Positions 9,304-53,510 of a stretch of DNA of 64,000 bases are shown here, in pieces. Position 1 is the stretch's first letter. Each line of letters opens with the position of its first letter. Made by a program: the position numbers and the translations under genes. A model generated the notes under the pieces. It did no database searches. It was not told the origin of the DNA and saw nothing but the letters and a program-made list of their open reading frames with translations. This stretch comes from Thermoplasmata archaeon (GTDB lineage Archaea > Thermoplasmatota > Thermoplasmata > Lutacidiplasmatales > UBA184): NCBI GenBank assembly GCA_021806135.1, contig JAJZYB010000004.1, forward strand, positions 7,686-71,685. The letters are read 5' to 3'.

Positions 9304-9888
9304 ATGGAACCCTGGCTCATCGCCCTGGCCACTCGCCGGCGGGTGGGACGCGTGGTGGCCCCGGTCCTGCAGGTGGTGGCCTCCTCTCCGGTCCCGACGT
9401 ACTTCCCGTGGGTCTTCGACGCGACCTTCTCCTTCCTGAGGGCGCCCCTCCTCTGGGGGGATGCCGAGGTCGCCATTCTCGTCCAGACCTTCCGGAACGG
9501 CTTCCACCATCCCTTCCTCGACCTCTGGAGCGGCGTCCAGACGATCCCCGCCGAGTTCTGGGAAGGGATGGACCACCACGAACCGGGCCCTTCACCCGGA
9601 TGCGCCGGGTCGTCCTGCCGGCCCCCTTCTCCCTACATTCTCCCCGGCACTTCCAGCCCGATGAACCGCCGCTGGACGGGGCTCGAGGTCCAGGAGTTCT
9701 GGCCTCAGCACCATCGGCGGGAGTCACCACCTCGTTGGGGGGTGGGAATGATGCAGTACATTGGACGGAACCTCGCCCTGGGCAACGTGGCGAACGCGGC
9801 CTGGGTATCGCTCCTCATCGGGATGGTGGTGCCGGTCTACGGACTGCGCTTCACCCGGAACCTCGTGGACCTCGTCCGCCGGACGTAG
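9304..9888 (+). CDS. hypothetical protein with a C-terminal predicted TM helix
   Basis: GC3 is very high in this frame over the whole ORF, while the opposite-strand ORF 9181..9579 looks like low-complexity junk. I recognise no motif. The C-terminus AAWVSLLIGMVVPVYGL is hydrophobic. Confidence 0.45.
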   Translation: MEPWLIALATRRRVGRVVAPVLQVVASSPVPTYFPWVFDATFSFLRAPLLWGDAEVAILVQTFRNGFHHPFLDLWSGVQTIPAEFWEGMDHHEPGPSPGCAGSSCRPPSPYILPGTSSPMNRRWTGLEVQEFWPQHHRRESPPRWGVGMMQYIGRNLALGNVANAAWVSLLIGMVVPVYGLRFTRNLVDLVRRT

Positions 9889-27378: not shown

Positions 27379-28335
27379 ATGGCGCCTCCCCTTGACCCTC
27401 TCCCTGGCTGGCTCAAGCGGCTCCTCGAGGAAGCGGGTTTCACCGTGGAGCCCCTTTCCGACACCTCCTGGAGGGCCTCTCGCCCCGCGGACGGGAAGGC
27501 CCTCCTCGGGGGCCCGGAGGCGGAACGGCGGCTCCGAAAAGGCCCTGGAGACCCCCCACCCTCCGGGGAGACCCTCTACTTGCTCCTCCCCCGTCTCCCG
27601 CGTCTGCGGGAGCGGGAGCGTGCGGCCACCGCAGGGTTCCATCTGCTCTCTCCCGAGACCCTCCTCGCCGACCTCGACCTGCTCCTGGTCGTTTCCCCCG
27701 CCCCTGAACCTCCCGTGACCCCCCTCTCCCCGGTGCCCCCTCCTCCGCCCGAGGAGGTCTTCCCGGAGGCGCCCACGCCCTTCCCACCGGAGGTCTTCCC
27801 CCGGGAGCGGGTGGTGAGGCCCCGGATCGGCTGGGACGACGCCCGGAGGTACGCGGAGGACCGGCTCCGGGGCTACCGGATCCGTCCCGTTCTGGTCCCC
27901 TTCTATCTCTTCGCGTACCGGATCCGCGGTCTCCCGGGAGACCGTCCGGGAAGCCCGCACTTCTGGGTCGCGGCCCCGGCCATCCCGGGGGAGGTGGAGT
28001 TCTGGTCGACGCGGGAGCGGGAATTGGTCCCCCAAATACCCGGAGAGTGGCGTCGGTTGCCCGGGACCCGGTCGGAGGAGGACTGCCGGGCCGCGGCGCT
28101 CTCCACCGCCCTCGTGCACCACGGCAGGATCGTGGATCGCTCGGAGTGGCGTGGGGGCGTGCTGGTCATCGACCGGACGCGGGGGTCACTGGGGGCGGAG
28201 GAGGTGGAGATGGGGGAGGGTTCACTGGTCTGGGTCCCTCACTGGCTGCTCGATGGACGCAACGGGCGGATCATCCTGGACTCCGTGACCGGCCTACCAG
28301 CTCAGCTGGACCCCGAAGACGGGTTCGACGGATAG
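27379..28335 (+). CDS. hypothetical protein (318 aa) with a proline-rich central linker
   Basis: The frame has high GC3 and the gene is divergent from cdc48. I recognise no motif. The central PEPPVTPLSPVPPPPPEEVFPEAPTPFPPE linker separates two predicted globular halves. Confidence 0.45.
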   Translation: MAPPLDPLPGWLKRLLEEAGFTVEPLSDTSWRASRPADGKALLGGPEAERRLRKGPGDPPPSGETLYLLLPRLPRLRERERAATAGFHLLSPETLLADLDLLLVVSPAPEPPVTPLSPVPPPPPEEVFPEAPTPFPPEVFPRERVVRPRIGWDDARRYAEDRLRGYRIRPVLVPFYLFAYRIRGLPGDRPGSPHFWVAAPAIPGEVEFWSTRERELVPQIPGEWRRLPGTRSEEDCRAAALSTALVHHGRIVDRSEWRGGVLVIDRTRGSLGAEEVEMGEGSLVWVPHWLLDGRNGRIILDSVTGLPAQLDPEDGFDG

Positions 28336-29550: not shown

Positions 29551-29560
29551 AGGCTTAACG
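29551..29560 (+). promoter_or_regulatory. TATA-like aggcttaacg 30-39 nt upstream of the tRNA at 29590
   Basis: It has the same motif and spacing as the element upstream of tRNA-Ser. Confidence 0.4.
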
Positions 29561-29589: not shown

Positions 29590-29692
29590 GCAGGCGTAAT
29601 CTAGTGGTAGGATCTCAGCCCTCCAAGCTGATTACCCGGGTTCAAAGCGGCCCATGGTCTCCCCATGGGCCGGGAACCTCCCGGCGCCTGCA
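29590..29692 (+). tRNA. tRNA with anticodon UCC (Gly), carrying a 32-nt insertion in the T-loop (29647..29678), a putative non-canonical intron
   Basis: Acceptor stem GCAGGCG pairs with CGCCTGC and the discriminator is A. The D-arm is ATCT-AGTGGTA-GGAT. The anticodon arm is TCAGC-CCTCCAA-GCTGA. The T-stem CCGGG pairs with CCCGG. The T-loop reads TTCAAA[32 nt]T, and the insert folds as GGCCCATGG-tctcc-CCATGGGCC. Removing it restores the canonical TTCAAAT loop. Position 33 is C rather than U. Confidence 0.55.
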
Positions 29693-29754
29693 TGCCCCGC
29701 TCCCCCTCCCGTGGCCCGCCCCCGGCGGCGGGCCAGGGGCTCACGTCCCCGACG

Positions 29755-29767: not shown

Positions 29768-29788
29768 ACCGCCCCGGTGCCCCGGTGC

Positions 29789-29871
29789 GCTGAGGTAGCC
29801 TAGCCTGGTAGGGCGCCGGTCTTGAAAACCGGTGGCGTTCCGCCTCGGGAGTTCAAATCTCCCCCTCAGCG
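29789..29871 (+). tRNA. tRNA-Ser (anticodon UGA), 83 nt with a long variable arm
   Basis: Acceptor GCTGAGG pairs with CCTCAGC and the discriminator is G. The D-arm is GCCT-AGCCTGGTA-GGGC. The anticodon arm is CCGGT-CTTGAAA-ACCGG. The variable arm is GGCG-TTC-CGCC. The T-arm is GGGAG-TTCAAAT-CTCCC. Confidence 0.9.
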
Positions 29872-29981
29872 TTCCCTTCCCACCCCCATCGACCCGTACC
29901 CTCCCGTCCTTCACGTCCCTCTGGGGAGGATAGCCGGCGGTCGGCGAGCGCAGAGGGGCGCCCCCGTAGCGTTGGGGAGAG

Positions 29982-30506: not shown

Positions 30507-31164
30507 CCCCCCCTCTTTCCGGGCCCTTCCGGGACCGGAGGAGCCAATCCTCCCGCCAGGCCATCTTCTTGGGGAGCCGGGAGAACCAACGGACGTCGGC
30601 GATCTCACGGAGGTCATGGGGCCGAAGGGGGCCTCCCCTCCACCGGGCCCGATACTGCAGGAAGATCCAGGTCAGGCGTCTCCCGTCGGGCGCCCGGAGC
30701 TCCTCGTCGTAGACCTTCCACAACCGGAGGTCGAGGACGGAACCTCCCGTCTCCTCCCGGACCTCCCGGCGGACCGATCGGCGGGGGGTCTCGCCTCGCC
30801 GGCCCCCGCCCCCGGGGGTGACCCACCACTGTCGGGGGTCACGGCCCACCGGAGGACGGACGAGGAGGACCCGTCCCCTCCGGTCCTCCACCCGGCAGGC
30901 CACTCCAAAGGCCGGTCCATTGAGGATCCGACGGGCGGCGCTGTCGAAGGCCACCTGCGGTACGTCACGTTGCCGGGCGATCCAGACGGCACGGTGCTCC
31001 CTGCCCCATTCCGCTCGGGCGAGTGCGCGGGCCCGCCGGAGAACCTCCTGCCCCACCCGACCCCTGTCCCGTCCCGGGGACGGTGGTGGGAAAGACGCAG
31101 GCTCGGTTAACCCCTTATCCGTCCCGGTCACTGGCGAGACGGACATGGCCGAACCGACCCCCAT
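30301..31164 (-). CDS. NUDIX hydrolase; the start is uncertain and the 3' end reads into the opposite-strand gene
   Basis: The Nudix box GGGGRRGETPRRSVRREVREETGG is perfect. Only the central roughly 150 aa look like a Nudix fold. The last roughly 70 codons are low complexity and antisense to the phosphatase-like gene. Confidence 0.55.
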   Translation of the reverse strand: MGVGSAMSVSPVTGTDKGLTEPASFPPPSPGRDRGRVGQEVLRRARALARAEWGREHRAVWIARQRDVPQVAFDSAARRILNGPAFGVACRVEDRRGRVLLVRPPVGRDPRQWWVTPGGGGRRGETPRRSVRREVREETGGSVLDLRLWKVYDEELRAPDGRRLTWIFLQYRARWRGGPLRPHDLREIADVRWFSRLPKKMAWREDWLLRSRKGPERGGVNRGYGASSRGSSRPARRPVLSAPPPRPAGPFPIGSWDPSSSSGTRAWRPGPGASQDPPARPRRRPRA

Positions 31165-33784
31165 GATGGCCCAGTATCAGGGCGTGCGGGCCCGGTACCC
31201 GGGACACCTGGTGCTCTTCCGGGTGGGGGACTTCTACGAGACCTTCTACGAGGATGCGGAAACGCTCTCCCGGGAACTGGAGGTGGTGCTCACCAGCCGG
31301 TCCTTCGAGGGCGAGGATCCCGTCCCGCTCGCCGGGGTGCCCCATCACGCCATCGAACCGTACCTGGCCCGCCTGGTCCGAAAGGGGTACCGAGTGGTGA
31401 TCTGCGACCAGGTGGAGGACCCGAAGAAGGCCCGGGGGCTGGTCCGGCGGGAGGTGACGCGCGTGCTCACCCCCGGGACGGTCCTGGAAGAGACCCTGCT
31501 CCCCGGAGGGCGAAGCAACTTCCTATTCGCTGTCCAAGGCTCGGTGGAGACGGAGTGGTGGGCCGCCCTGGTGGACGTCTCCACCGGAGAGACGGTGGTC
31601 CACTCCCGGGAGGGAACGGGCCTGGAGGTCCTCGTGTCCGAGCTTGCCGGCTTCGCCCCGGTGGAGGTGCTGGTGCCTTGGGCGACGGGCGGGCCGGTCC
31701 CTTCGGAAGGGTTCTGGGAGGAGCGACTCCCGGGGGTGCGCCGGAGCGTGCTCCCCCCTCCGGTGTCGGTGGCGGACCTCCCGTCGGCCTGGTCGCGTTT
31801 CGTCGTGACCCACCCGAGCGCGGCCGGCGTGCTGGGCTCGCTGGCGGCGTACGTCCGGACCTCCGAGCCCCGGGTGCTCGTCTTGGTGAACCCCCCGCGG
31901 ATGCACCAGAACGCGGGTCGGATGGGGCTCGACGCGAAGACCCTCCGTCACCTGGAGATCTCGGAGCCCATGTCCCCCGGGGCCGGCCGCGGGCGGACGC
32001 TCCTCGACGCGATGGACGAGACGGTGACCCCCCAGGGCAGGCGTCGGCTGACCTCCTGGATCACCGCTCCCCTCGCCGACCCGGTCGCCATCGAGGAGCG
32101 GCTCGACGTGGTCGGCTATTGTTTGGACGCCCCGGGCCTCCTCCCCAAGGTACGGGAGGCATTGAAGGGGGTGGGGGACCTCTCCCGGCTCGCCTCCCGG
32201 ATCCTGGCCCGTCGTGGGGGGCCCCGGGACCTGGGGGCGCTCGGTCGGTCCTTGGACGGGGTCTTACGCCTTCGCACCTTGCTCAGCGAACTCCCCCCGG
32301 GGGGCGTCCCGTCCCTGCTGGGCGACCTCCGGAACTCCCTGGACCCCCTGGACACGCTGAGGAGTCGCCTGGGCGAGACGCTCTCCGACGACCTCCCAGC
32401 CCTTCCGGGCCAGGGGGGGATGCTCCGTTCCGAGGCCTTTCCCCGGCTCCGGGAGCTCCGCGCCCTTCAGGATGGGGCGCTCGCCGCCCTCACCGCCCTC
32501 GAACGCCGGGAAGCCGAGGCGAGTGGCATCCGCTCCCTGAAGGTGGGGTACAACCAGGTCTTCGGGTACTATCTGGAGGTCAGCCGCTCCCAATTGGAGC
32601 GCGTCCCCGCCGACCGTTGGCACCGTAAGCAGACCTTGGCCCAGGGGGAGCGCTACACCACCGAGGAGCTCACTGCACTGGAGGCGACGATCCTCCAGGC
32701 CCGGGAGAGCCTGCGGGAGGCGGAGATGGATCTCTACGAAGGGCTCCTCAAGGAGGTGGATGCCCAGGCCCCTTCGGTGCAGGCCACCGGGGAGGCGGTG
32801 GCGAGCCTGGATGCGCTGGCCACCTTCGCCCAACTGGCCCGGCTCCGGCGGTGGGTGAGGCCGAAGGTCCTCGACCATGGCCGGATCCGGATCCTGGAGG
32901 GTCGGCACCCGGTCCTCGAGACCACCTTGGGACCGGCCTATGTCCCGAACGACCTGGAGCTCGACCGGGCCGGCGGCCGGCTCCTGCTCCTCACCGGACC
33001 TAACATGGCCGGCAAATCCACCTACATGAGGCAGGCGGGGCTCCTCGTCGTCCTCTCCCAGGCCGGAAGCTTCGTGCCGGCCCGGTATGCCGAGGTGGGC
33101 GTGGTCAGTTCGCTCTGCACCCGGATGGGGTTCACGGACGACCAGGGACGCGGGAAGAGCAGCTTCATGGTGGAGATGTCGGAGGTCTCCGAGATCCTCC
33201 AACGCTCCGACGAGAGGAGCCTGGTCCTTCTCGACGAGGTGGGACGCGGGACCGGGACGGCGGATGGCTTCGCCTTGGCGTGGGCGATCCTCCGGTACCT
33301 CCACGATGACGTGCGGTGCCGGACCATCGTGGCCACCCACTACTACGGGCTCGCCGCGAAGGTGGAAGGCCTCTCCGGAGGTCGGAACGCCCACCTGGCG
33401 GTGAAGGAGGAGCGGGGGGGGATCGTCTTCTTGAGGACCCTCCTCCCCGGGGCGACCGACAAGAGCTATGGTCTCCACGTGGCGGAGCTGGCCGGCCTGC
33501 CGCCCAGTGTCCTTCAGGAGGCGCGCAAGGAACTGCGCCACCGGGAGGTCGCCGGGGAGCGGGGGGGAGGAGCCTCCCCTGCCCGTCGCGCCATCCAAAG
33601 CGTCCTGTGGACGGCACCCGGACCAGAGCTCGGCCGGGAGATCATCGACGAACTGAGGGCGCTTTCCCCGGAGGGTCTCACCCCCCTGGAAGCCCTGACC
33701 TGGCTGACCCGGTGGCGGCACCGCCTCGACGGAACGCCTTCCGCCCCCGCAGGCCCATCGAACGGGAAGGCGGATACGGAGTGA
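31145..33784 (+). CDS. mutS: DNA mismatch repair protein MutS (MutS1 type)
   Basis: The N-terminus is MAEPTPMMAQYQGVRARYPGHLVLFRVGDFYETFYEDA. Walker A is LLLTGPNMAGKSTYMRQ, and STFMVEMSE follows. The ATG at 31145 is in frame with the over-long track ORF 30818..33784. Confidence 0.9.
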   Translation: MAEPTPMMAQYQGVRARYPGHLVLFRVGDFYETFYEDAETLSRELEVVLTSRSFEGEDPVPLAGVPHHAIEPYLARLVRKGYRVVICDQVEDPKKARGLVRREVTRVLTPGTVLEETLLPGGRSNFLFAVQGSVETEWWAALVDVSTGETVVHSREGTGLEVLVSELAGFAPVEVLVPWATGGPVPSEGFWEERLPGVRRSVLPPPVSVADLPSAWSRFVVTHPSAAGVLGSLAAYVRTSEPRVLVLVNPPRMHQNAGRMGLDAKTLRHLEISEPMSPGAGRGRTLLDAMDETVTPQGRRRLTSWITAPLADPVAIEERLDVVGYCLDAPGLLPKVREALKGVGDLSRLASRILARRGGPRDLGALGRSLDGVLRLRTLLSELPPGGVPSLLGDLRNSLDPLDTLRSRLGETLSDDLPALPGQGGMLRSEAFPRLRELRALQDGALAALTALERREAEASGIRSLKVGYNQVFGYYLEVSRSQLERVPADRWHRKQTLAQGERYTTEELTALEATILQARESLREAEMDLYEGLLKEVDAQAPSVQATGEAVASLDALATFAQLARLRRWVRPKVLDHGRIRILEGRHPVLETTLGPAYVPNDLELDRAGGRLLLLTGPNMAGKSTYMRQAGLLVVLSQAGSFVPARYAEVGVVSSLCTRMGFTDDQGRGKSSFMVEMSEVSEILQRSDERSLVLLDEVGRGTGTADGFALAWAILRYLHDDVRCRTIVATHYYGLAAKVEGLSGGRNAHLAVKEERGGIVFLRTLLPGATDKSYGLHVAELAGLPPSVLQEARKELRHREVAGERGGGASPARRAIQSVLWTAPGPELGREIIDELRALSPEGLTPLEALTWLTRWRHRLDGTPSAPAGPSNGKADTE

Positions 33785-34171
33785 GGAAGGGCGCCCCCCG
33801 GGGATCCGGCCGAGTCCATCCAAACGGTGTTCCCCCTCCGTTCGTCCCGCCGCGGCGGGGACCATGCTGGACCCGGGTCGCGGCGCCTTCGCGAGCGGAG
33901 ACCATCGACCGGGGGAGGGCGGCCGGCCCTGCTGTCCCGCCACCGAGGGCTTGATCGGACCCCTTCCCCGTCTTCTCTGCCGCCCTGACCCGGAGCGGGG
34001 GTACCGGGGCCGGCCGGGGTGCCCTGGACCGTGGGGCTCCTCGGGGCGGCACCGTACTCCTGGCCGGTCGGCTCGCGTTCGTCCTCCTGGCGTGGAGACG
34101 TTGATCCGGGGAGTCCCGGTCGCTCTCCGTGGGGAAAGGGTAAAGGTCCGTTCTCCGGTCCACCGGGACTC

Positions 34172-36001
34172 ATGACCGGCCTGGGCGGCCCCAGCGACTC
34201 CCCGGGGCTTGGCGGAGAGCCCCGGATCCAGCGCTTGGACGAGATCACCATCCGTCTCATCGCGGCGGGGGAGGTGGTGGAGCGACCGGCCTCGGTGGTC
34301 AAGGAACTGGTGGAGAACGCCCTGGACGCCCGGGCCCGGGTCCTCACCGTGGGGATCGAGGACGGGGGCCTCTCCCGGATCGAGGTCGCCGACGACGGGA
34401 CCGGGATCCCCCGGGACGACCTGCCTCTGCTCTTCCAACGGCACGCCACCAGCAAGCTCCGCTCAGGGGCTGGGCTCCCCGTGGTCACCACCCTGGGGTT
34501 CCGGGGGGAGGCGCTCGCCTCCATCGCTTCGGTCTCCCGGGTACGGTTGACCACGTGCACCCCGGGGGAAGCCCACGGCTACGCCGTCACGGTGGACGCC
34601 GGATCCCCGGCCGCGATCGGCTCCGCGGCCCGTGCCCCGGGAACCACGGTGGAGGTCCGGGACCTCTTCTACCGGACCCCGGCCCGGCGGAAGTTCCTCC
34701 GTACGCCGGCCTCCGAGGGCCTGCGGATCCTGCAGATGCTGCAACGGGTCTACCTCGCCCACCCGGGGATCGACCTCACCTTCGTCCAGGACGGGGAGGT
34801 CCGCTTCCGGCTCCCGCCCCTCCCCGACCTCCCCGCTGCGGCCCGGGAGGTCTTCCCGGACGCCCTGGGAGAGGGGGCATTCCCCTTCCAGGGCAGCGGG
34901 GGTCCCGGGCTCTGGATCGAGGGGGTGGCCTCCCCCCCGTCGTTCTCCCGGGGGAATGCCGACGGGATCGTGCTCCTGGTGAACGGCCGACCGTTCTCCT
35001 CCCGCTCCCTGCAGGAGGGGATCCGATACGCCTACCGGGAGCTCCTCCCCCGGGGACGGTATCCGGTGGTGGTGGCCCATCTGCGGGCAGACCCGTCCCG
35101 GGTGGACGTGAACGTGCACCCCACGAAACGCGAGGTGCGCTTCGAGGATGAAGCGGCGCTCCGGGACGCCCTCCAGCACCTTCTCCACGGAGCCCTCCGG
35201 GACCAGCCCCGGACGTCAGGCCTTTCCCAGGGAGCCTCCGGCCCGCTGCCGTTCGTCCTGCCAGAGCCTTCCGGGGACCTGTCCAGGGCCCGGGGCGCTC
35301 CCCTTCCTCTCCCGCTCTCGTTGGGGGGAACGGCCATCCCCCGGGACCTGGCCCACTATACCGGGGAAATCTCGCCAGGGCGGGATCCCTCCCGGGGAGC
35401 GACGCTGCCCGCCACCGGCGTCCATCCCGCGCTCCGGCTCCTGGGAGAGGTGGGAAGGCTCTACCTCGTGGCCGAGGCCCTGGAGCCCCCTGGATCCCTC
35501 GTCCTCGTCGATGCCCACGCCGCCAGCGAACGCATCGTGTATGAGCGGGTGAAGCAGGAGGACCCCCCCGCGCACCAGGAACTCCTGGTCCCCCGGGACC
35601 TCGCCCTCACCCCGGTCCAGGCGGCGGCCTGGGAGGTGCACGGGGAGGCCCTCTCCCGTCTCGGGTTCCGGGTGGAGCCGTTCGGGAAGGGGATCTGGCG
35701 GGTCCGTTCCTTGCCCAGCTTCCGGGGACGCGTGGCGCGTCCCGAGACGCTCGGTCCCCTGCTCGAGGAGCTCGCCGCCGGGAACCAAGGCGCTCCTCAG
35801 GAGGCGCTGACCGAACGGCTGGCGAAGAGCGTCGCCTGTCACCTCGCCATCCGGGGAGGGGACGTCCTATCGCTGGAGGAGATGGAACGGCTCCTCCGGG
35901 AGCTCTACGCGTGCGCAGAGAGCTTCACCTGCCCCCATGGACGCCCCATCATGGTGACCGTCCCGCGCTCGCGCCTGGACCGGTGGTTCCATCGGCCGTG
36001 A
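34172..36001 (+). CDS. mutL: DNA mismatch repair protein MutL (endonuclease-proficient type)
   Basis: The GHKL ATPase N-terminus is IRLIAAGEVVERPASVVKELVENALDA. The C-terminal region VDAHAASERIVYE matches the MutL DQHA(x)2E(x)4E nuclease motif. Confidence 0.9.
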   Translation: MTGLGGPSDSPGLGGEPRIQRLDEITIRLIAAGEVVERPASVVKELVENALDARARVLTVGIEDGGLSRIEVADDGTGIPRDDLPLLFQRHATSKLRSGAGLPVVTTLGFRGEALASIASVSRVRLTTCTPGEAHGYAVTVDAGSPAAIGSAARAPGTTVEVRDLFYRTPARRKFLRTPASEGLRILQMLQRVYLAHPGIDLTFVQDGEVRFRLPPLPDLPAAAREVFPDALGEGAFPFQGSGGPGLWIEGVASPPSFSRGNADGIVLLVNGRPFSSRSLQEGIRYAYRELLPRGRYPVVVAHLRADPSRVDVNVHPTKREVRFEDEAALRDALQHLLHGALRDQPRTSGLSQGASGPLPFVLPEPSGDLSRARGAPLPLPLSLGGTAIPRDLAHYTGEISPGRDPSRGATLPATGVHPALRLLGEVGRLYLVAEALEPPGSLVLVDAHAASERIVYERVKQEDPPAHQELLVPRDLALTPVQAAAWEVHGEALSRLGFRVEPFGKGIWRVRSLPSFRGRVARPETLGPLLEELAAGNQGAPQEALTERLAKSVACHLAIRGGDVLSLEEMERLLRELYACAESFTCPHGRPIMVTVPRSRLDRWFHRP

Positions 36002-51916: not shown

Positions 51917-53464
51917 TCAGACCAGCGGGATGAGACGGACGTGCGGCGCCCCGGCCTCCGGGTCCACCGCGAGAGCGTAGAGCATGGTCCGGGGACGGAC
52001 CCCGTAGAGGCAGGGGGTGTTGTCGATGCTCACCACCCGGAAGTACGTGTCCATCATGTTCACGATCTCGGCGGTGGAGGAGAGCCCGGGCTTGAGGAGG
52101 CCCAATCCCACGTCCCCCATGATGCTGGTCCGCTCCACCCCCATGAAGAGGGTCTTGATGGCGAGCTGGTCTCCCTGAAGGTACTCCAGCGTGTCGAACC
52201 CGGTGTACTCGATGTAGGGCTGGGGCTGTCGGTCCCCTCGCACGGCCCGTTCGGCGTTCTGCAGCGCCCGTTGGGCGTCCTCCCTCCCGGCCCGGAGCAT
52301 GGGGAGGATGTACGGGGCCTTCGGCTCGGCCGCGAAGTAATCCGTGATCCGGACCCGGGAGTCGAAGGTCCCCGGCGGGATGAACCGGGCCAGGAGGTCC
52401 TTGAGGGACTCCGCCGACTCCCCCCCGGACAGGACCCCGAGGATCCCCCGGTCCTGCGAGAGGAAGTTCAGGAACATGGGCGCGAAGAGACGGTAGTAGT
52501 CGTCGGTGGAGACGTTCACGTCGATCTCGAAGCCATTGTAGGAGCCCCGGCGGAAGCCCCCGCCCAGCAGCGTGTCGAAGTCCGGTATCCCGGTGGAGAA
52601 GTGGGTGCGGCTGTCCGGGATCGGCTGCCATGGATGGGGCGCCATCTCGGTGGGCTCTGGGCGGGGAAGCAGTCCTAGGGCGCGGAACCGTCCGCCGGCG
52701 AGGGTGACCGCATAGCGGGACCGGGGGATGGCCGTGGCCCGGAGCTTCTCCAGGCGCAAGTGCCGGATCCTCCGCTCGTCCACCTCCTCCCGGGAGAGGG
52801 AGATGAGGCCATCGACCAGGTACTCGATGCCCCCGGCCTCGGGCTTCTCCAGGATCATCACCACGTTGGTGTTGGAGTTCTCGGCCAGGTCCTTCTGCAG
52901 GGCCATGACCATCTCCTCCATCTCGAGGGCGTACTTGTGCGTCACCCCTTCGAGGGAATCCACCACCAAGAGGGCCTTCTCCGGGAGCACGCGCTCGATC
53001 CGGTCGTACAGGTGCTCGAGCTCGGGCATCCGGTTCCTCTGGAGCAGCGCGTTGAGCTGCGTGCGGTCCACGGTACGGGGGCGGGTGGCCTCCTCTCCCA
53101 TGGTCCGGAGCAGGTCCCGGGCCTGGTTGAGCCGCTCACGGACGGCGGGGGAGACCGGTGCGGCCGGTTCCCGCTCCCGTTCCGCGATGGTCTCCAGGAA
53201 GATCTTCCCGGCGTCGTAGATGCGGTTACGCGACTCCACGGTCTTGAGCCACGGGAACTGCCGGAGCAGGGCCTCGTCGGAGACACGCGTGGACAGGTAG
53301 AAGCTCCGGCCGCTCTCCCCGAGCTTCTCCAACAGTTCGAGCCCGAGCGTGGTCTTGCCCGTGCCGGCCCCACCCTTGACGATGACGCTCCGGCCCCCGG
53401 GTTGTCCGAGGAAGCTGACCAGTTCTGGGGGGATGCCAGTGGGGTCGGTGGGGGTAGGGTCCAT
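51917..53464 (-). CDS. KaiC-like double RecA-fold ATPase with an intact first domain and a degenerate second domain
   Basis: Domain 1 has TGIPPELVSFLGQPGG...VKGGAGTGKTTLGLELL (Walker A) and LLVVDSL (Walker B). Domain 2 keeps TGIPDFDTLLGGGFRRGS but lacks a P-loop. The ATG at 53464 is preferred to the track TTG at 53506 because of the spacing to the TATA. Confidence 0.6.
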   Translation of the reverse strand: MDPTPTDPTGIPPELVSFLGQPGGRSVIVKGGAGTGKTTLGLELLEKLGESGRSFYLSTRVSDEALLRQFPWLKTVESRNRIYDAGKIFLETIAEREREPAAPVSPAVRERLNQARDLLRTMGEEATRPRTVDRTQLNALLQRNRMPELEHLYDRIERVLPEKALLVVDSLEGVTHKYALEMEEMVMALQKDLAENSNTNVVMILEKPEAGGIEYLVDGLISLSREEVDERRIRHLRLEKLRATAIPRSRYAVTLAGGRFRALGLLPRPEPTEMAPHPWQPIPDSRTHFSTGIPDFDTLLGGGFRRGSYNGFEIDVNVSTDDYYRLFAPMFLNFLSQDRGILGVLSGGESAESLKDLLARFIPPGTFDSRVRITDYFAAEPKAPYILPMLRAGREDAQRALQNAERAVRGDRQPQPYIEYTGFDTLEYLQGDQLAIKTLFMGVERTSIMGDVGLGLLKPGLSSTAEIVNMMDTYFRVVSIDNTPCLYGVRPRTMLYALAVDPEAGAPHVRLIPLV

Positions 53465-53510
53465 GTGAATGGGGTCCTCCTTGAGCGCGGGAAAATCAAG
53501 GCTCAATCGC

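Follow-up and report, generated by a model that had tools for sequence, protein, structure and literature searches.

We find that positions 29590–29692 of the stretch of DNA analysed here (64,000 nucleotides; hereafter, the window) very probably constitute a functional tRNA-Gly(UCC) gene that is interrupted between tRNA positions 59 and 60 by an archaeal bulge–helix–bulge (BHB) intron, which would be removed by the splicing endonuclease EndA, probably an enzyme of the α′2 type. The feature lies well beyond chance, as judged both from the fold of the pre-tRNA (z = −4.7 relative to shuffled sequences) and from its recurrence, the orthologous insert and tRNA architecture being present in 70 distinct sequences from independent assemblies. 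The intron is both old and conserved, being shared at an identical site by about 70 related species.

An interrupted tRNA-Gly(UCC) gene

The gene lies on the plus strand of the window. Its 5′ exon (29590–29646) corresponds to tRNA positions 1–59, according to the ARAGORN call on the spliced sequence, and includes the 5′ strand of the acceptor stem (29590–29596), the D-arm, the anticodon arm, the 5′ strand of the T-stem (29636–29640) and T-loop nucleotides 54–59. The exon is followed by a 32-nt intron (29647–29678), which reads GCGGCCCATGGTCTCCCCATGGGCCGGGAACC in the window sequence, and by a 3′ exon (29679–29692) that supplies U60, the 3′ strands of the T-stem (29680–29684) and of the acceptor stem (29685–29691), and the discriminator base A73 (29692); CCA is absent from the encoded 3′ exon. 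A preliminary description of this locus had drawn a complete cloverleaf in which all four stems pair, and the sequence is as it said, with an acceptor of GCAGGCG/CGCCTGC, a D-stem of ATCT/GGAT, an anticodon stem of TCAGC/GCTGA and a T-stem of CCGGG/CCCGG. That description had also read the T-loop as TTCAAA followed by 32 nucleotides and a T, and both the sequence and ARAGORN bear this reading out; once the insert is excised, the T-loop becomes TTCAAAT and ARAGORN calls a 71-nt tRNA-Gly(tcc). The hairpin that it had placed within the insert is real, but sequence and folding give it a length of 10 bp rather than 9 bp.

In its unspliced form (29590–29692), the gene drew no call from ARAGORN under any option tried and no Rfam match at the gathering score, a search in which the neighbouring tRNA-Ser alone was found. 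When Rfam RF00005 was used in E-value mode, just the 5′ part of the unspliced gene aligned, at 19.8 bits against a threshold of 29, a shortfall that is expected because the gene is interrupted. No second interrupted tRNA came to light anywhere in the window, whether with ARAGORN's intron options or with Rfam run in E-value mode. The adjacent tRNA-Ser(UGA) gene (29788–29872; 62 bits against the Rfam tRNA model) is uninterrupted, as had been stated before. The spacer between the two tRNA genes contains an 8-bp GC hairpin (GGCCCGCC ... GGCGGGCC; 29713–29734) that is also found in two related loci (L007 and L008) and is absent from the shorter spacer of relatives of the L001 type.

The window has a GC content of 66–72% throughout, and its genes are those of an ordinary archaeal chromosome; they include genes for MCM, TFIIB, a proteasome subunit, a termination factor of the aCPSF1/FttA type, Cdc48, ribosomal proteins L13 and S9, AspRS, AlaRS, MutS, MutL and the KEOPS subunit Cgi121, the last of these just upstream of tRNA-Gly. 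The host would be a soil archaeon of the Thermoplasmata with a high GC content, probably of the Lutacidiplasmatales (TMEG) type; genomes of the Lutacidiplasmatales, with AcS3-62 as the type genome, have a GC content of ~69% and a size of 2.1 Mb (PMC9287336). Three of the MAGs recovered in the species-wide scan described below carry AcS/SubAcS isolate names, which follow the style of AcS3-62. The MutS and MutL genes (30818–36001; ORFs of 988 and 660 aa, both of bacterial type) are adjacent to one another 1.1 kb downstream of the tRNA pair, and the order tRNA-Gly/tRNA-Ser/MutS is maintained across the syntenic contigs. In one strain (GCA_027378635.1; L004:3850–6537), a differing block with ORFs of 80, 453 and 76 aa follows right after tRNA-Ser(UGA) and replaces the genes of five otherwise identical loci (L001–L003, L005 and L006); this block, in which neither an integrase nor any other clear Pfam domain turned up, may be a strain-variable island beside a tRNA. 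Elsewhere in the window, positions 51917–53506 (minus strand) encode a KaiC/GvpD-like ATPase with GvpD P-loop and basic region 2 domains, no other gas-vesicle genes being present among the window ORFs scanned, and two ORFs that are well supported by a high GC3 (9304–9888 and 27379–28335, both on the plus strand) have no Pfam match. The one of these two that encodes 318 aa is conserved beside the metallo-beta-lactamase/Cgi121 pair in all syntenic loci.

Among the glycine codons in 30 genes of the window, GGA stands at 14.4 per 1000 codons, so that a glycine tRNA with U34 is needed; GGG, at 45.8 per 1000, exceeds GGC (27.3) and all the others, an unusual pattern for 70% GC. Upstream of the gene, a TATA-like A/T-rich box (GGCTTAAC) occupies positions 29552–29559 of the plus strand, 31–38 nt upstream of tRNA position 1. 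At 59 of the 68 orthologous loci compared, the upstream octamer richest in A/T is located in the −50 to −41 bins, and the box, with its recurring motif of the AAGCATTA/TTAA type, stands out from the 70% GC background. Its sequence marks it as a putative archaeal BRE/TATA-like promoter element.

The BHB motif of the T-arm and its conservation

Orthologues were collected from syntenic contigs, which were reached via upstream Cgi121 homologues, and from a scan of one genome per species. The pattern used in the scan of the genome collection covered the D-arm and the anticodon loop alone, so the presence of an insert was not imposed by the search; it returned 73 loci, nearly all of them titled 'Thermoplasmata archaeon' and from soil and peat. 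All 70 distinct orthologous pre-tRNAs carry an insert of 28–34 nt at exactly 59/60. Mean pairwise identity over these sequences is 97% for the exons and 52% for the inserts; all four stems of the cloverleaf (acceptor, D, anticodon and T) show 100% pairing in the 70-sequence alignment, and the few exon columns that vary include two stem pairs that are changed on both sides.

These figures bear on a rival reading, in which a tRNA pseudogene occupies the site, or a gene that was broken when a small palindromic mobile element was inserted or an integration event left a scar. Integration often targets tRNA genes, standard tRNA finders miss this locus and its C33 is atypical. Such a history is at odds with nearly identical exons and fully paired stems in 70 species-level sequences whose inserts have drifted far apart, with the identical site of the insert in all 70, at which no flanking direct repeats are visible, and with the conservation of the upstream A/T box. 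Moreover, when 664 kb of related DNA was searched with a general pattern (a stem, TTCRA, an insert, the complementary tetramer, a second stem and the acceptor), all matches were chance ones inside coding regions, and thus no other insert-bearing tRNA of this kind appeared. We regard a pseudogene or a broken gene as very improbable.

A simple rule describes the junctions: a tetramer of the intron (positions n−5 to n−2), located ahead of its last two nucleotides, complements U54-U55-C56-R57. In the clade as a whole, the tetramer reads CGGA, CGAA, CGGG or CGAG where it lies opposite UUCG, and GGAA, GGAG, GGGA, CGAA or TGAA where it lies opposite UUCA. The resulting central helix has a bulge on each of its opposite strands, A58-A59-N1 and N(n−1)-N(n)-U60, and both bulges are exactly 3 nt in 70/70 sequences; within the 3′ bulge, the two intron nucleotides are freely variable in the alignment of the 70 sequences and U60 is invariant. 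The central helix, which is 96% paired over the clade, reaches 4 bp in 59/70, so that these form a strict 3-4-3 hBHBh′ motif. Position 57 and intron position n−5 make a G-C pair in 58 sequences and an A-U pair in one, and are mismatched in 11, including the window; A57 itself is the minority state, found in 12 of the 70 sequences, the window among them. When the T-arm and intron are folded, the minimum-free-energy structure is the exact 3-4-3 hBHBh′ in 44/70.

The alignment also contains covariation. Standard pairs make up 95.8% of the cells of the named BHB structure, in which 12 pairs change on both sides, and each of the nine pairs counted in the insert hairpin (9/9) shows changes on both sides. 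None of 500 shuffles reached the observed values, and when the partners were slid by 1–3 columns, a control that preserves relatedness, pairing dropped to 32–46%. RNAalifold, given the MAFFT alignment alone, recovered the acceptor, anticodon and T stems together with the intron hairpin, with covariation. The preliminary description had proposed a non-canonical archaeal tRNA intron at 59/60, and had named the lack of any BHB fold around the junctions as one ground for abandoning the proposal. Such a fold can be drawn at both junctions, and its conservation and covariation across the clade support the reading of the insert as an intron of the BHB type.

In the window's own copy, all of it on the plus strand, the outer helix h is formed by the T-stem, the 5′ strand of which (positions 49–53, CCGGG; 29636–29640) pairs with 29680–29684; this helix is invariant and 100% paired across the 70 sequences, and is present in the window's minimum-free-energy fold. 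The exon strand of the central helix H (U54, U55, C56 and A57; 29641–29644) lies opposite the intron strand GGAA (29673–29676) and pairs with 29676, 29675 and 29674 as U-A, U-A and C-G, the three base pairs being followed by a mismatch between A57 (29644) and G29673. The inner helix h′ (29648–29672) is a 10-bp hairpin in which 29648–29657 (CGGCCCATGG) pairs with 29663–29672 (CCATGGGCCG) around the loop TCTCC (29658–29662), and it appears in the minimum-free-energy folds. The 5′ bulge of 3 nt (A58 and A59 plus the G of the intron; 29645–29647) has its predicted cleavage site between 29646 and 29647, and the 3′ bulge of 3 nt (C and C of the intron plus U60; 29677–29679) has its predicted cleavage site between 29678 and 29679. 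The register of 5′ cleavage is deduced from BHB geometry; it is the sole register that gives a 7-nt T-loop, and it is kept in 70/70. The minimum-free-energy fold of the window's copy contains a 7 × 7 internal loop, and constraining the fold to the BHB raises the energy by 2.9 kcal/mol. Both 3-nt bulges and the flanking helices h and h′ are nevertheless present, and the window's copy is a slightly degenerate BHB, not a member of the bulge-less HBh′/hBH class. We rejected an alternative register, in which G53–C56 forms the central helix with GAAC and the cuts fall after A58 and U60, as it results in a 5-nt T-loop; this register pairs in the window's variant only, not in sequences of the L001 type.

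Were the insert instead retained, the mature tRNA would carry a 32-nt extra arm that emerges from the T-loop between positions 59 and 60. These are bulged T-loop nucleotides, and an insertion between them is sterically conceivable. A retained arm would leave unexplained why the intron tetramer is complementary to U54-U55-C56-R57, with the high degree of pairing and the covariation of 57 with n−5 described above, and this same pairing would compete with formation of the T-loop. Nor does retention account for bulges that stay at exactly 3 nt in every orthologue while the hairpin drifts in both length and sequence, or for a relative that has 211 nt at 59/60 with the same junction geometry. We find retention of the insert scarcely credible.

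The relative in question is a MAG of 41% GC ('Thermoplasmatales archaeon' Yes46-08), in which a tRNA-Gly(UCC, C33) gene (L051:1927–2208, minus strand) contains a 211-nt intron at 59/60. This ORF-less intron is highly structured, with a number of long hairpins (folding energy of T-arm and intron together, −113 kcal/mol), and the minimum-free-energy fold places a perfect 3-4-3 BHB at the junctions. The 59/60 site is therefore old, and tolerant of very different intron bodies.

In the maturation pathway that we infer, the gene would be transcribed into a precursor in which the T-stem serves as the outer helix and the intron's own 10-bp hairpin as the inner helix. The central helix would arise from pairing of U54-U55-C56(-A57) with the intron tetramer that lies just before the 3′ junction, leaving A58-A59-G and C-C-U60 as the two 3-nt bulges. 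Within each bulge, EndA would cleave behind the second nucleotide (29646 and 29678, respectively), and an RNA ligase would join the halves, whereupon the T-loop UUCAAAU could form and CCA could be added.

The probable splicing endonuclease

EndA is encoded neither in the window nor in 664 kb of related loci, and three EndA sequences used as tblastn queries matched nothing in the window or in any of the Thermoplasmata loci. A protein search with a fragment of EndA from Archaeoglobus fulgidus returned short one-unit EndAs of other phyla only, and the 120 best matches of an EndA profile search included none with a high-GC amino-acid composition. Scanning metagenome contigs for KTGFK[FY]GSHFR in high-GC codons recovered a set of which ~30, with 65–72% GC, each encode a protein of ~350 aa that is ~50–56% identical to an NCBI-named Thermoplasmata EndA; the 90% clusters of this 350-aa protein bear the NCBI name 'tRNA-intron lyase [Thermoplasmata archaeon]'. 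According to precomputed Pfam matches, each chain contains two pairs of N-terminal and catalytic units. The protein can be aligned over its whole length with the EndA of A. fulgidus, a homodimer; it is 3 residues shorter than that enzyme before the catalytic His and, where the alignment covers this part, has no insertion next to the His. It is in the segment before the catalytic histidine that the specific loops of the crenarchaeal and ARMAN-2 enzymes are inserted (PMC5829648).

The assemblies to which EndA contigs were traced (WNFX, DATDRX, DATBXC, DATHLC, JASDBE and ENA/JGI samples) are not among the assemblies with the tRNA locus, and the intron-bearing tRNA was found in no EndA locus; GC content, NCBI naming and habitat lead us to assign the 350-aa EndA, provisionally, to the window's genome. 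The surroundings of the EndA loci (L211–L228) are conserved, with a PDDEXK_19/HTH_3 protein encoded divergently upstream and a HAD-family hydrolase convergently downstream. From these sequences, the enzyme of the lineage is most likely a two-unit homodimeric (α′2-type) EndA of the strict kind, since the two units, the alignment with A. fulgidus EndA and the shorter segment before the His favour such an enzyme, which would also fit the strictness of the clade's motif.

The preliminary description had argued otherwise, holding that the intron depends on a relaxed-specificity endonuclease and pointing to a heterotetrameric EndA. Neither claim is supported: the motif is a strict 3-4-3 in most orthologues (59/70, and 44/70 as the minimum-free-energy fold) and does not call for an enzyme of broad specificity, the host belongs to the Thermoplasmata and not the Crenarchaeota, and the high-GC contigs encode a two-unit 350-aa EndA. 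An intron of the relaxed crenarchaeal type, needing a broad-specificity endonuclease of (αβ)2 or ε2 composition with a specific loop, would suit the A57·G mismatch of the window and the fact that the BHB is not the minimum-free-energy fold there, and reviews tie introns outside 37/38 to broad-specificity enzymes (PMC4090602, PMC5829648). Yet the window and every one of the 70 orthologues have the two 3-nt bulges and the helices on either side, the great majority of the orthologues are strict, their hosts are Thermoplasmata, and the EndA of the high-GC contigs is a single two-unit chain with a 3-residue deletion before the His; no α/β pair was seen, in a search that was not designed for one. 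Two points weigh against our own reading: the central helix of the window's copy is mismatched, and in vitro an EndA of the A. fulgidus kind is inefficient on relaxed motifs (PMC5829648). We consider a relaxed intron with a broad-specificity enzyme improbable, and favour a BHB intron spliced by an α′2-type EndA.

C33 and kinship with known introns

The anticodon loop CCUCCAA (29620–29626, plus strand) consists of C32, C33 (29621), the anticodon UCC (29622–29624), A37 and A38. The C at position 33 to which the preliminary description had drawn attention is real, position 29621 being a C within CCTCCAA. The loop is invariant in alignment A1 (in which position 33 is column 32), and C33 is found in all 70 sequences because the search pattern required it; the U33 form of the tRNA pattern is GTGGTAGGATNNNNGCCTTCCAAGC. 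In all, a tRNA-Gly(UCC) with C33 is present in at least 70 species-level lineages and in one Bathyarchaeia MAG. Other tRNAs in these loci have U33 where the ARAGORN call is clear, and a survey from 2008 found U33 to be a conserved feature of glycine tRNAs (PMC2630981). In the Ca. Bathyarchaeia MAG (L071, minus strand), the tRNA-Gly(UCC) gene occupies the last ~100 nt of the reverse complement and has a CCTCCAA loop and no T-loop insert, so that C33 in tRNA-Gly(UCC) is not confined to the Thermoplasmata; about 21 extra nucleotides in its D-loop region (GTCTAGT-CATCCACATCCAAGGACTAGA-GTGGTAGGAT) are probably a D-loop intron.

Because C33 removes the usual U-turn uridine, full translational function of the tRNA cannot be assumed. 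Editing of C33 to U in the mature tRNA and protonated-C pairing are candidate ideas as to how the loop might work. The elongator tRNA-Cys(GCA) of the Sulfolobales likewise has a clade-conserved C in place of the near-universal U33 (PMC7668247), in a different tRNA and a different phylum. The CCUCCA of the anticodon loop happens to equal the anti-Shine-Dalgarno core.

The 59/60 position is among the documented sites of non-canonical archaeal introns (PMC4090602; PMC3239211). Euryarchaeota with α4 or α′2 (α2) endonucleases have introns at 37/38 only, according to one review (PMC4090602), a statement to which the Thermoplasmata clade is an exception in position and not in motif; we found no report in the literature of a T-loop or non-canonical intron in Thermoplasmata. 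The closest likeness in position is with ARMAN-2 (Ca. Micrarchaeum acidiphilum), in which pre-tRNA-Pro(GGG) and pre-tRNA-Cys(GCA) also have introns at 59/60 whose excision restores a 7-nt T-loop (PMC3239211). The tRNA-Pro intron has a strict hBHBh′, as do 59 of the 70 sequences here, whereas that of tRNA-Cys is a relaxed hBH with an intron of 13 nt, compared with 28–34 nt here (PMC3239211). ARMAN-2 differs further in lineage, in the identity of the tRNAs and in its enzyme, an ε2 EndA with a specific loop; the present intron interrupts tRNA-Gly(UCC), and none of the 70 distinct sequences recovered from the clade lacks it.

In geometry, the present intron, in its clade consensus form, matches the canonical 37/38 intron, such as that of the elongator tRNA-Met of Thermoplasma acidophilum (PMC4307237), and the class of endonuclease is expected to be the same. 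Both have a 5-bp outer helix, an inner hairpin and two bulges of 3 nt; in both, loop positions 1–4 pair with the 3′ end of the intron, which separates loop position 6 from loop position 7. They differ in that the present motif is built on the T-arm and the 37/38 motif on the anticodon arm; the T-loop is therefore unable to form before splicing. The non-canonical introns of Crenarchaeota/Thermoproteales (Marck and Grosjean 2003 and Sugahara et al. 2008), as far as they are summarized in PMC4090602, similarly lie outside 37/38, with 59/60 among the sites listed. In that summary (PMC4090602), they are often relaxed (HBh′/hBH), numerous within a genome and recently transposed, and are served by an (αβ)2 EndA with the crenarchaeal loop; the present intron, in contrast, is single, old and mostly strict, with a likely α′2-type enzyme.

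A more speculative proposal, which we think unlikely, is that the intron, rather than being a neutral relic, is an obligatory maturation step for the C33 tRNA-Gly, with the U54–C56 helix delaying formation or modification of the T-loop until splicing, and that A57 implies tolerance by a loop-less α′2 EndA of a degenerate BHB away from the anticodon arm. If true, this tolerance of A57 would contradict the current 'specific loop' model of substrate breadth.

General tRNA finders miss the gene (ARAGORN, and Rfam at its gathering threshold), so that, outside an intron-aware archaeal mode, bins of an abundant soil lineage could seem to be without tRNA-Gly(UCC). The type of intron and its site at 59/60 are already known; what is of interest is its fixation in a whole clade of Thermoplasmata with a probably strict enzyme, together with C33, which makes the anticodon loop a second, testable oddity of the clade's tRNA-Gly(UCC). 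The clade also offers a natural series for the tolerance of loop-less EndA, from G57 with 4 bp to A57 with 3 bp and a mismatch, and from introns of 28 nt to one of 211 nt. A strict BHB on the T-arm that copies the geometry of the anticodon arm fits the view that the shape of the motif, and not its position, is what limits the α4 and α′2 enzymes.
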